Sequence record: PV287714.1
Reading direction: 5' to 3' (one strand)
Length of the DNA stretch: 64,000 nt
Source: Escherichia phage HMD-9
The stretch's first letter is position 1, and each line of letters opens with the position of its first letter. The notes beneath the pieces are model-generated. The model saw nothing but the letters and a program-made list of their open reading frames with translations, did not search any database and was not told the origin of the DNA. A program made the position numbers and the translations under genes. Positions 8,138-55,384 of the stretch are shown here, piece by piece.

Positions 8138-8412
8138 TAAATTTTCCTCGCTAAATCGCGAATTTGACCTACAGTATAATCTTGGATATAAACTTTATTA
8201 ATGGGCTCATCAATAAATTTTGTCATAGATTCAATATCTTTTTGTATCTCTTCAAGACTGTATACTATCTTTAAAGCTTTTTCGCGAATAGTAACATTAT
8301 CAGGTCCTGAATTTTCTTGAATGACAGCTTTAACATTTGCCACAAGAGATTTAAACTGATGCAAACTTAATTCAATCATTAATAACCGCCTTATAAAGAT
8401 GGCTAATTTCAC
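8137..8412 (-). CDS. hypothetical protein, member of tandem paralogue pair
   Basis: 91-aa track ORF; similar spacing pattern to adjacent 86-aa ORF. Confidence 0.5.
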   Translation of the reverse strand: MKLAIFIRRLLMIELSLHQFKSLVANVKAVIQENSGPDNVTIREKALKIVYSLEEIQKDIESMTKFIDEPINKVYIQDYTVGQIRDLARKI

Positions 8413-52058: not shown

Positions 52059-53072
52059 TCATTTATAATAACTTCGGTGGTTTTCAAGATAAACCCTCTC
52101 AAGGAAGTCATCCCAGAAACCCATGTCTACTTTTTGCTGCATACCGTTCTTAGAAGCTTCAATGGATGCTGCTTCTACTTGATCGACCACATCTTCCAAA
52201 AACTCTTGAACAGTTTTAAATGGATGTTTACCCAGCTTCACGTCGAGAATAAACGGAGCATCTTGGAGTGGATAAACCAAGTCGCCAGTTTTGTAAATTT
52301 CCAATAGTTGGAGTCCACCACGACAAGCATGACTCAGAGCTTTCCAATCAATGCCTTCGTTAGCTTCAGCTTTACGAGCGCGTTCACCATATTCAGCATC
52401 GAGTTTATTCAAAGACTGCTTAAGCTCAATAAGAGAAAGTGTAGTCTGATATTTACGACCCAACACAGTATAGAACGTTTGCGGGCCTGTTTTCTCATGA
52501 TTATGGAATACCCATTCACAGAATTCGTTTTCTGGAAGACGGTGTTTAATATCTGCAATTTTAGTACGACGTTGTCCTTGTGTTCCATCTTCTCGGTAAT
52601 CAACCCACTGATCGGGGATTTGATTAACTACTTTCAATACATCACGCAATGCGGCCAAACGAGAACCCTTAACACCATATTTAGAAGCTTGCTTGCGGAC
52701 ATATCCTAAATAAGATTTCATGTTAGTTGTATAAAAACGAGAACGATTGTCTTGAATAAACTTCCATACATCAGGCAAATCAGATTTAACTACCAGTTCA
52801 GGTGGAGTGTGGAGCATATCCAATGCTACGGTTTCACCATCTGCTGCTAATTTAAAGAAATACTTAAGACTGTATAGTTCATGGTCAATATCATCTTTAG
52901 TGTTTTTAGATGATGTGTTGTTAGTGTTTTTGCTCATATGCTCTTTAACATTTCCAATAAGAATATCACGAGCAGGAGGAACAAAGATTTCTTTAAAATC
53001 TACATCAGATTCTGGAGTAGAAGTTCCATAAAGATGACTACCAAAATAGCTTTTCATTACTGTTTTCATCAT
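52059..53072 (-). CDS. nucleotidyltransferase-fold protein (Pol-beta superfamily signature)
   Basis: 337-aa track ORF; N-terminal GSHLYGTSTPESDVDF fits GS-x(9-13)-DxD minimal nucleotidyltransferase motif. Confidence 0.6.
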   Translation of the reverse strand: MMKTVMKSYFGSHLYGTSTPESDVDFKEIFVPPARDILIGNVKEHMSKNTNNTSSKNTKDDIDHELYSLKYFFKLAADGETVALDMLHTPPELVVKSDLPDVWKFIQDNRSRFYTTNMKSYLGYVRKQASKYGVKGSRLAALRDVLKVVNQIPDQWVDYREDGTQGQRRTKIADIKHRLPENEFCEWVFHNHEKTGPQTFYTVLGRKYQTTLSLIELKQSLNKLDAEYGERARKAEANEGIDWKALSHACRGGLQLLEIYKTGDLVYPLQDAPFILDVKLGKHPFKTVQEFLEDVVDQVEAASIEASKNGMQQKVDMGFWDDFLERVYLENHRSYYK

Positions 53073-53452
53073 TCAGCCTTATATTCAATAACAGGACATA
53101 CTTTAGCTTTACGCGCTTTTAAAAATTCGACGATAATAGATTTCTTTGGTTGAATAGGAGGTAAACCTTTATACGCCCTATCAATATTTTCTACATGTAA
53201 AGCATAATCCTTTTTCCATTTATAATCTTTATATTTTTCATGCAGTTGTGCAGGAATAACAAATGAACCGATAATAAGTAAAACAAGCAAAATAGCAAGT
53301 ATAAATGCTGATGGAATAAGAGTCCATAAACTACCAAAAATAAGCCATTTCTGTATGATTTCTGCACAGATGATAGTTAGACCTGCGAGTATAGTACATC
53401 CGAAAAAAGAAACAAAAATGTAGGAATAACAATAGACCAAAAATACGCGCAC
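53069..53452 (-). CDS. hypothetical membrane protein
   Basis: 127-aa track ORF, two or three TM helices. Confidence 0.5.
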   Translation of the reverse strand: MRVFLVYCYSYIFVSFFGCTILAGLTIICAEIIQKWLIFGSLWTLIPSAFILAILLVLLIIGSFVIPAQLHEKYKDYKWKKDYALHVENIDRAYKGLPPIQPKKSIIVEFLKARKAKVCPVIEYKAE

Positions 53453-53531
53453 AGTGTCTTAGGTCGTTTCCATTCGTCGTTAAACATTTTGAATAATTTA
53501 TAATGCCAAGAGCTTTCATTAATAATCATAA

Positions 53532-54053
53532 TTATCCTTTCATTGAAGGTGTAACAGTTGTTAAATACTTAATCATAGCTTCAGCTTCTGATTTTGATAA
53601 TGAAATTTCTCCATTGTTTTGACGAATAGAAATAAAATCCGGATGACGGTCACCACCAGCTTTTAAAATACACATATAAGTATCAGTTTCATCTTCAATA
53701 TCTGAAATGATTGAAGCAGTTCCGCATGAATGTGGTTTTTGATAAATCAATGCAGCTTTTCTTCCACCGTTTGACTGTTCATAAACTTTTAACACATCAA
53801 ACAAATCACTTCTTTTATCAATAGCTAAGATGTTGTTTTCATCTTCAATGTTAAATCCTTCGGATACTTCATAAAGTGTCACCCATAAATCGCCAATATC
53901 AATGACAGCATTCACCTTTCCATGATTTTCAAGAGCATTACAAATTTTCTTAATTTCATCATAACTCATTTTAATAATATCATCTCCTTGAATAAGGAAG
54001 ATGTCATTTTTAAATTCAACACGAATTAAACCGCTTTCACTTGAAATAAACAT
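53532..54053 (-). CDS. hypothetical protein, tandem paralogue A
   Basis: 173-aa track ORF; C-terminus SKSEAEAMIKYLTTVTPSMKG parallels neighbour. Confidence 0.5.
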   Translation of the reverse strand: MFISSESGLIRVEFKNDIFLIQGDDIIKMSYDEIKKICNALENHGKVNAVIDIGDLWVTLYEVSEGFNIEDENNILAIDKRSDLFDVLKVYEQSNGGRKAALIYQKPHSCGTASIISDIEDETDTYMCILKAGGDRHPDFISIRQNNGEISLSKSEAEAMIKYLTTVTPSMKG

Positions 54054-54059
54054 ATTTCC

Positions 54060-54617
54060 TCACTTTGAAATCATAGTTGGAATGACAGAATCAAGATAAG
54101 TCTTTAGCGCAATAGCTTCGTCTTTGGTAAATGTGACAATATGTGATCGAAAATCGTCAATTTGGCGAATAATTAAGACATCTCCCTCTTCATAACATTT
54201 TGATACATTTAAAAGAGTTTCATCATTCTGATCGCAAGCATTAGTAATAATAGCATTGCAATTTTTGAGCCATTTTAAACTATGTTTTCTTTCATTAGAA
54301 TAATAAAAATATTTAATCTTAGCTATAAAACTATCCCAATGAATAACTGATAAGCACATTGACTCACTTTTAATATTAAATCCTGGGCATGAAGAATAAA
54401 AATGAATTTTGTGCTCATCATTGATGCTTACTATTTTATCAGTATAAGGATATTCAATTTGGGTTAAATGAATGATTTCACTAGGCGTAAAATACAGCAT
54501 ATCGTCTTCTTGCGTCAAACGATACATATTATTTACTTTTTCTATAGCCAATTCACCAAAAAGCGGACTAACTTCTAATACTAATCGTTTCATATTGATT
54601 CTCTTCGACTCACTCAC
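54060..54617 (-). CDS. hypothetical protein, tandem paralogue B
   Basis: 185-aa track ORF; C-terminus TKDEAIALKTYLDSVIPTMISK. Confidence 0.5.
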   Translation of the reverse strand: MSESKRINMKRLVLEVSPLFGELAIEKVNNMYRLTQEDDMLYFTPSEIIHLTQIEYPYTDKIVSINDEHKIHFYSSCPGFNIKSESMCLSVIHWDSFIAKIKYFYYSNERKHSLKWLKNCNAIITNACDQNDETLLNVSKCYEEGDVLIIRQIDDFRSHIVTFTKDEAIALKTYLDSVIPTMISK

Positions 54618-54752
54618 AATTACATACTCCTTTGAATAATATCAATAATGTTGTTCACTAGATTATAAGTAAACATTGGGTGATAATATTGAATCATCAC
54701 ATACACAACAAACAAAATTTTCATTCTCTTCTCCTTGGCAGTTGACAAGATT

Positions 54753-54782
54753 ACTATATCATAACCTTGCCAACTTGTAAAC
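54753..54782 (-). promoter_or_regulatory. T4-type early promoter
   Basis: Reverse complement GTTTACaagttggcaaggttatgaTATAGT. Confidence 0.55.
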
Positions 54783-54947
54783 CATTAAATGACGTTTTCA
54801 ATAAAATTCTGAAGCTTTGTGTGAGCATCAACCATGATTTTCATTTCTTCCTTTGCGAAAGCTGTACCTCTTTCACGAGAAGAATACTCATAGTCAGAAA
54901 CTGCATTAGCGTATTCTTCAATTAGCTTCATTAAAAACATCTGCTTT

Positions 54948-55142
54948 TCAGTTTTCACTATTCCACCTAATCATTTCAAGATATTGAACTAACTTAGCTT
55001 TGGATTTATCCAAATCCTTTTTAGCTGCTTCTATACCATCGTACGAATATCCTTCACAATGCTCAACTGCCAATTGGTATGAATCTATTTCAATATCACG
55101 TGCTAATTTAATGATTTTTTCAAACTGTTCACGTGTTAGCAT
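54948..55142 (-). CDS. hypothetical small protein
   Basis: 64-aa track ORF. Confidence 0.4.
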   Translation of the reverse strand: MLTREQFEKIIKLARDIEIDSYQLAVEHCEGYSYDGIEAAKKDLDKSKAKLVQYLEMIRWNSEN

Positions 55143-55144
55143 AC

Positions 55145-55384
55145 TTAAACTCTCGTATTATGATCGATAATTTCATCAAGAAACATATCTAAAGCTTCTA
55201 CAGCATTATCAACTTTAGCTTCAAATTCTTCAATACCTTTATTTGCAATGCCTGACGAAAACCAAGCAAAGTCACTAAGTTCCTCATCTGCTTTGCGAAT
55301 TAAAGCTACCAATTCTTTAATTTTATCTGCTTGTTCTATACTAATCATTATTCCACCACATATGAAAGAGAGAATATTGCACAC
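55145..55384 (-). CDS. hypothetical small protein
   Basis: 79-aa track ORF. Confidence 0.4.

Follow-up and report, generated by a model that had tools for sequence, protein, structure and literature searches.

The comparison of two adjacent genes of Escherichia phage HMD-9, designated A and B, showed that their products are true, strongly diverged and ancient paralogues of the T4 MobD.1/Y05I family. Both genes lie on the minus strand of a 64,000-nucleotide stretch of the phage DNA (record PV287714.1), referred to below as the window. Gene A extends over positions 54060..54617 and encodes 185 aa when read from a GTG codon; gene B, which starts with ATG, extends over 53532..54053 and encodes 173 aa, and the lengths and coordinates given in a first-pass annotation of the window proved exact. 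That annotation had noticed that the two proteins end in similar segments, had explained this by local duplication and divergence, and had named a similarity limited to the terminal segment as the result that would speak against it. Such a limitation was looked for and was not found, since the BLASTP alignment of A with B runs from end to end, with 46 identities in 176 columns (26%, E=3e-8). The products have in common this full-length homology, two Pfam domains, a PHROG family and a predicted three-repeat fold, which bears out the proposal that they are divergent paralogues. Structure prediction and presence or absence in T4-like genomes had also been suggested as checks: the AF2 models of both proteins show the three-repeat fold, and B is found at at least 90% protein identity in 431 phage records and is absent from T4.

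The Pfam model of the N-terminal domain, PF24449 T4_y05I_N (gathering score 24.9 bits), was matched by A at 1.3e-38 (132.1 bits) and by B at 9.1e-34 (116.5 bits), and that of the C-terminal domain, PF24448 T4_y05I_C (gathering score 27 bits), at 2.5e-20 (73.0 bits) and 3.6e-23 (82.1 bits), respectively, all four scores lying above the gathering score. The PHROG 1502 profile was covered in full, positions 1-178 of 178, by A at 1.7e-79 and by B at 5.9e-66; NCBIfam gave no match for either protein. The paralogy of A and B is already implicit in Pfam and PHROG, and both proteins are 97-100% identical to deposited sequences. What is added here are the full-length statistics of the pair, the assignment of A as the T4 orthologue, the replacement by mobD that left 16 nt of B in T4, the natural chimeras, the allelic cassette and, as a probable reading, a PUR-like three-repeat architecture with repeat III as the dimerisation module.

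Judged from sequence and position, gene A is the orthologue of T4 MobD.1 (NP_049711, UniProt P39240, Y05I_BPT4), to which it shows 86-88% identity. An in-frame ATG at 54590 would give a 176-aa product (177 codons with the stop), as annotated in many records; the GTG is preceded by GGAG at a distance of 9 nt, and the corresponding site of T4 reads ATGATG. The T4 protein belongs to the early class at both the RNA and the protein level and was detected by mass spectrometry (PMC9697503, supplementary tables). Apart from an entry for the mobD insertion site in a table, the search of the literature on the Y05I/MobD.1 family yielded no experiment or functional paper. Orthologues of A are named 'molybdopterin-guanine dinucleotide biosynthesis protein MobD' in RefSeq and elsewhere (e.g. 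NC_019503 YP_007004481), evidently by mis-transfer from the T4 gene name mobD.1, and B, which is called 'mobD.1' in ime09, appears in one record as 'putative SSB protein'.

The region is 97-98% identical to many Tequatrovirus (T4-like) genomes, for example those of Shigella phage SF2-1 and Escherichia phage ime09, and the gene pair sits in the early-gene region that extends from rI/tk to nrdC.11. The order on the minus strand is a DUF7438 array (mobD.4/.3/.2a), mobD.2, A, B, a membrane-protein gene and nrdC.11. A and B are arranged head-to-tail, 6 nt apart, in a tightly packed run of genes of the same strand, with an overlap between the stop codon of A and the Shine-Dalgarno sequence of B. The gene preceding A, mobD.2 (54620..54724, minus strand), is a 34-aa hydrophobic ORF which is likewise annotated in T4 and RB27, and its stop lies 2 nt before the GTG of A. 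A sigma-70-like sequence, TTTACA-17-TATAGT with an upstream TG (54753..54781, minus strand), is a candidate early promoter of mobD.2-A-B; it matches the consensus at 10 of 12 positions, a consensus match only, and sites of this kind are no more frequent in the region than expected from shuffled sequence. The three genes mobD.2a, mobD.3 and mobD.4 (57, 64 and 79 aa; 54785-55384, minus strand) all match Pfam DUF7438 and constitute a second tandem array of paralogues directly upstream of the pair. A fourth member, mis-annotated as 'helicase loader', occurs in related phages, and RB27 has an extra DUF7438 gene of 186 nt between mobD.2 and A.

Downstream of B lies a conserved neighbour of y05I, the RB69ORF104c-like membrane-protein gene (53069..53529, minus strand; PHROG 944), which in the window is broken by a 1-nt deletion near 53413, leaving two ORFs (50 aa and 127 aa) that overlap. 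In comparison with the single 462-nt CDS of ime09 and RB27, one C is missing after a T5 run, so that the gene is either a real pseudogene or carries a homopolymer sequencing error. It is followed by nrdC.11 (52059-53072, minus strand), which gives a match at 3.6e-11 to the Pfam family RlaP ('RNA repair pathway DNA polymerase beta family') and is conserved in distant T4-like phages as the anchor downstream of the y05I-membrane gene block. The synteny was compared in the window, ime09, RB27, Bp7 and five metagenomic loci (L007-L011), and that associated with the y05I family was found to be kept, with the rI-nrdC.11 early region followed by a membrane protein of about 155 aa and the RlaP nucleotidyltransferase. 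In several T4-like phages a Phage_tudor (PF24144) gene stands immediately upstream of y05I, as in L010 (1286-1546), L011 (3729-3992) and L007 (2233-2499), often accompanied by DUF7189 and zf-DksA/TraR genes; the same slot of the window holds only the 34-aa mobD.2. L010 and L011 have ORFs of 173-175 aa in the interval from the membrane gene to RlaP; examined as possible hidden B-like paralogues, they proved unrelated (hhalign probability <1%).

The alignment of the DNA with T4 explains why this phage has one copy only. T4 is identical to the window across the mobD.1 stop codon and the Shine-Dalgarno sequence and remains so for the opening 16 nt of B (ATGTTTATTTCAAGTG); beyond them it contains the mobD HNH homing-endonuclease cassette, and identity returns exactly at the start of nrdC.11. 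It follows that mobD replaced B together with the membrane-protein gene. The stretch left in T4 (positions 8260-8283 of the T4 locus, NC_000866, against 54038-54062 of the window) comprises, besides the Shine-Dalgarno sequence, the start codon ATG and the first five codons of B, and is a footprint of the replaced gene. The mobD arrangement of T4 was found at at least 80% query coverage in only 47 records, and in about 450 records only the flanks of the query are matched, with a spacing that fits the pair arrangement. Gene A is present without B in T4, Dhakavirus and RB69-like phages; outside Tequatrovirus a single full-length copy occupies the A/B position, as in Dhakavirus Bp7. B has the same PF24449 and PF24448 architecture as the single T4 protein. 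T2-like records hold a variant of B with 56% identity. In one T2 record, AP018813, both A and B are fragmented into small ORFs, and this record was judged unreliable.

The A position is polymorphic. The 5' three-quarters of the gene, at about 54190..54640 (minus strand), form an allelic cassette in which the sliding identity to RB27 is about 50%, compared with 90-100% in the flanks. The RB27-type allele has about 47% protein identity to gene A, the borders of the cassette are sharp, and A is constant over roughly its last 40 codons; the N-domain at the A position is the fast-evolving and exchangeable part of the protein. A single chimeric A/B gene of 179 aa replaces the pair in the Logan metagenome contigs L007-L009, and the chimera was found on six contigs. 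In this gene (P0017; L007 2501-3040) nucleotides 1-387 match A and nucleotides 379-538 match B, and at the junction both parents carry the 9-nt microhomology GATGAAACT, located at 54216..54224 in A and at 53685..53693 in B (both on the minus strand). The chimera arose by deletion between these two copies. The fact that it is in register confirms the homology of A and B independently and shows that the modules are interchangeable. Another protein, P0048, is a fusion of the first 50 or so residues of A with the C-terminal part of nrdC.11.

Neighbour-joining trees calculated for the N-domain, the C-domain and the full-length proteins placed the B clade outside all the alleles found at the A position (T4 type, RB27 type, Dhakavirus type and the more distant P0051). 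The identity of the B N-domain is 23-32% to each sampled A-position allele and 13-16% to the outlier P0066, and the DNA of A and B is identical at 32 of 63 positions over the shared motif. Taken together, these values show that an old event is concerned, whether a duplication or the import of a diverged allele, and the last of them shows that no recent gene conversion has been keeping the motif alike. A recent local tandem duplication, with the C-terminal similarity preserved by gene conversion, would suit two genes that are adjacent, in the same orientation and only 6 nt apart, and the chimeric P0017 genes testify that recombination between A and B does occur. This explanation has nevertheless been largely refuted and is held to be very improbable, given the protein identity of just 26%, the divergence of the motif DNA, the position of B outside the A-position alleles of several T4-like lineages, Dhakavirus included, and the conservation of B itself at at least 90% across the records that contain it. 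Even less credit, practically none, is due to the suggestion that A and B are otherwise unrelated proteins which bear the same short C-terminal peptide: the motif is indeed their most conserved segment, yet the Pfam domains that they have in common and the homology along their whole length refute a likeness confined to it. A more serious candidate, though one that we regard as doubtful, is that recombination brought in B, a diverged allele of some unsampled T4-like lineage, and placed it beside the resident copy. The locus is a recombination hot spot, with sharp-bordered allelic cassettes, the mobD replacement and the chimeras, and the B N-domain is about equidistant from the A-position alleles, that of Dhakavirus Bp7 having 32% and the neighbouring A 23% identity to it; against import, a B-type gene as the sole copy at the A position was not found in any phage. 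In-situ duplication and recombinational import of a diverged allele are indistinguishable at present sampling.

In each of the AF2 models of A and B (mean pLDDT 73 and 72, respectively) a unit of four or five β-strands and a following helix occurs three times; the alignment behind the models is shallow, with 21-25 sequences of a single narrow family. Units I and II make up the N-terminal domain (54294..54584 in A and 53769..54050 in B, minus strand), which is predicted with confidence in both proteins (pLDDT 80-94). In A each of these repeats has four β-strands and a helix, and the domain resembles a 'type I' PC4-like/PUR-like domain. The C-terminal domain is unit III, which in A (54072..54281, minus strand; Pfam residues 113-182) is predicted to have five β-strands and a long helix; the corresponding domain of B (53541..53750, minus strand; Pfam residues 102-171) has a further match in PHROG 7763, whose members are about 78 aa long. 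In the monomer models its pLDDT is low, 47-62 in A and 46-71 in B. The arrangement that serves as a criterion for PUR proteins, namely three ββββα repeats of which I and II form an intramolecular helix-swapped domain, was found in the predicted models. Repeats I and III have a common Q-[ED]-D-D...T-x-x-E pattern, which at an hhalign E value of 4.6e-4 and a probability of 14% is suggestive only, and no sequence-level similarity was detected by hhalign between repeats I and II or II and III.

The best structural matches, Pur-alpha, MRP1/2, Whirly and PC4/Sub1, are all nucleic-acid binders. The members of the PC4-like/Whirly superfold among the matches comprise MRP1/MRP2, PBF-2 p24, StWhy2, Sub1/PC4, Borrelia Pur-alpha, PUR repeat III and a PC4-like protein of T5. 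Proteins that do not bind nucleic acid are matched as well (SsgA, the KhtT N-domain and T7SS chaperones), so that the ligand cannot be deduced from the fold by itself. At the level of sequence, neither A nor B matched the PurA/PUR, PC4 or Whirly models of Pfam at E<=1, the family profile matched no PDB chain at E<=10, and a fold search of BFVD returned members of the family only and no characterised viral relative. According to a review (PMC7549692), PC4-like domains arise either when two repeats of a single chain combine (type I) or when two chains swap helices (type II), a lone repeat is unlikely as a stable entity, and Pur-alpha, whose repeat III dimerises, is the only protein known to its authors in which both types are joined. 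As modelled, the Y05I architecture would match this description of Pur-alpha, type I plus type II. The phage proteins differ from Pur-alpha (PDB 3k44, 5fgp, 5fgo) in having no detectable sequence similarity to it, in being acidic and in the five predicted strands of their repeat III. Bpur of Borrelia (PDB 3n8b/3nm7) and the type II PC4-like proteins PC4, T5 4bg7 and YdbC are likewise without sequence relationship to the phage domain, whereas Whirly, MRP1-MRP2 and SsgA-like proteins, of the type I PC4-like fold, lack a third repeat and resemble Y05I in structure only.

The segments quoted in the first-pass annotation were found at the C-terminus of A (TKDEAIALKTYLDSVIPTMISK, 54063..54128, minus strand) and of B (SKSEAEAMIKYLTTVTPSMKG, 53535..53597, minus strand), with 10 of 21 residues identical. 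In A the segment comprises the repeat III helix together with its N-cap and the tail; the helix covers residues 156-173 of the A model and residues 154-171 of the B model, and the invariant positions of the family within the motif are K, E, A, Y and L. When 1.84 billion representatives were searched exhaustively with the profile, only 29 relatives were retrieved, among which no informative domain fusion was present. A 1572-aa protein with 10 'matches' (P0061) was discarded as a false positive of the profile search, being a repetitive protein of the cell-surface type. About 12 of the representatives are complete proteins of 67-87 aa in which the C-domain is the sole domain and the terminal sequence reads ...TKxEAxALVxYLNSVIPTM.... 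Yersinia phage TG1 has such a C-domain-only protein, YenMTG1_109, at the syntenic position, without an N-domain upstream, and equivalent proteins of Serratia phage X20 and Yersinia phage fHe-Yen9-01 are present in BFVD. The existence of these free-standing proteins makes the motif the hallmark of an autonomous module throughout the family. It is thus common to A and B, as had been stated, and is not special to the pair, being the signature of the C-terminal domain of the whole family.

We lean, if only slightly, towards a joint explanation in which A and B are ancient paralogues with a three-repeat PUR-like fold, repeat III forms dimers and a ligand is bound on the β-sheets of the N-domain. 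In the models, repeats I and II pack together into a closed PC4-like/PUR-like N-domain, and repeat III would be a single half-domain, which in a PC4-like fold is not expected to be stable by itself. By analogy with repeat III of Pur-alpha and with single-repeat bacterial PUR proteins, it may pair with a second repeat III, the C-terminal helix being swapped onto the sheet of the partner. A and B would then act as dimers, A-A, B-B or A-B, and the 'shared C-terminal motif' would be the swapped helix with its cap; under this proposal it would be the most conserved part of the family because both packing and the dimer interface depend on it. The free-standing C-domain proteins and the low pLDDT of the monomer models point indirectly to such a repeat III dimer. 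Since A occurs without B in T4 and other genera, an A-B heterodimer may form and cannot be obligatory. With less assurance, the dimers may be accessory factors of early infection that hold their ligand on the N-domain β-sheets, and a host or defence protein is slightly more likely to be that ligand than a single-stranded nucleic acid. This ranking follows from the acidity of the family, the missing sequence link to PUR, PC4 or Whirly proteins and the cassette nature of the A N-domain. With the exception of one small stand-alone protein, the members of the family are all acidic, their pI values being 4.2-5.7 and their net charges -1 to -22; the two proteins of the pair have pI values of 4.68 and 5.68, and the N-domain of B has a pI of 4.3. 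Nucleic-acid-binding PC4-like domains are basic. The acidity argues against the binding of purine-rich ssDNA or RNA, although a local basic patch would still be compatible with these values.

It could also be supposed that A and B bind ssDNA or RNA, either without sequence specificity or with a preference for purines, and regulate early transcription or mRNA. We consider this possible and rather doubtful. In its favour are the nucleic-acid binders at the head of the structural matches, the analogy with Pur-alpha together with the Pfam label 'y05I-like putative transcription factor', the early expression of the T4 gene (MobD.1, PMC9697503) and the nucleic-acid-related neighbours, Phage_tudor and zf-DksA/TraR upstream and the RlaP nucleotidyltransferase downstream. 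The Pfam label is presumably based on the fold neighbours; neither Pfam nor NCBIfam gave a match to a DNA-binding domain (HTH, RHH, zinc finger and the like). Weighing against it are the acidity of the whole family, that of the B N-domain included, the failure of the PUR, PC4 and Whirly models to recognise the sequences, and the polymorphic N-domain cassette, which would be unusual for a housekeeping nucleic-acid binder. The more specific idea of an acidic viral counterpart of Pur-alpha, which heterodimerises through repeat III and whose fast-evolving N-domains bind or mimic a host factor, e.g. a defence or nucleic-acid-handling protein, and not nucleic acid, is, as a whole, unlikely. The defence-system HMMs of PADLOC gave no match at E<=0.1.

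The finding is correct and fairly ordinary, and it answers no long-standing question. Its value is mostly one of annotation, as hundreds of T4-like genomes carry these genes as 'hypothetical', 'MobD molybdopterin biosynthesis protein' or 'SSB', and they can be described instead as two paralogues of one PUR-like, three-repeat family, and the model phage T4, in which a homing-endonuclease cassette took the place of one copy, is the exception. Were A and B such an acidic counterpart of Pur-alpha with a host factor as ligand, they would be, besides Pur-alpha, the only known proteins in which type I and type II PC4-like domains are joined, and the allelic N-domain cassette would be the record of an arms race. 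Should the dimer or heterodimer and the protein ligand both hold true, the pair would represent a compact viral version of the Pur-alpha architecture and a candidate host-interaction module with an exchangeable specificity domain.
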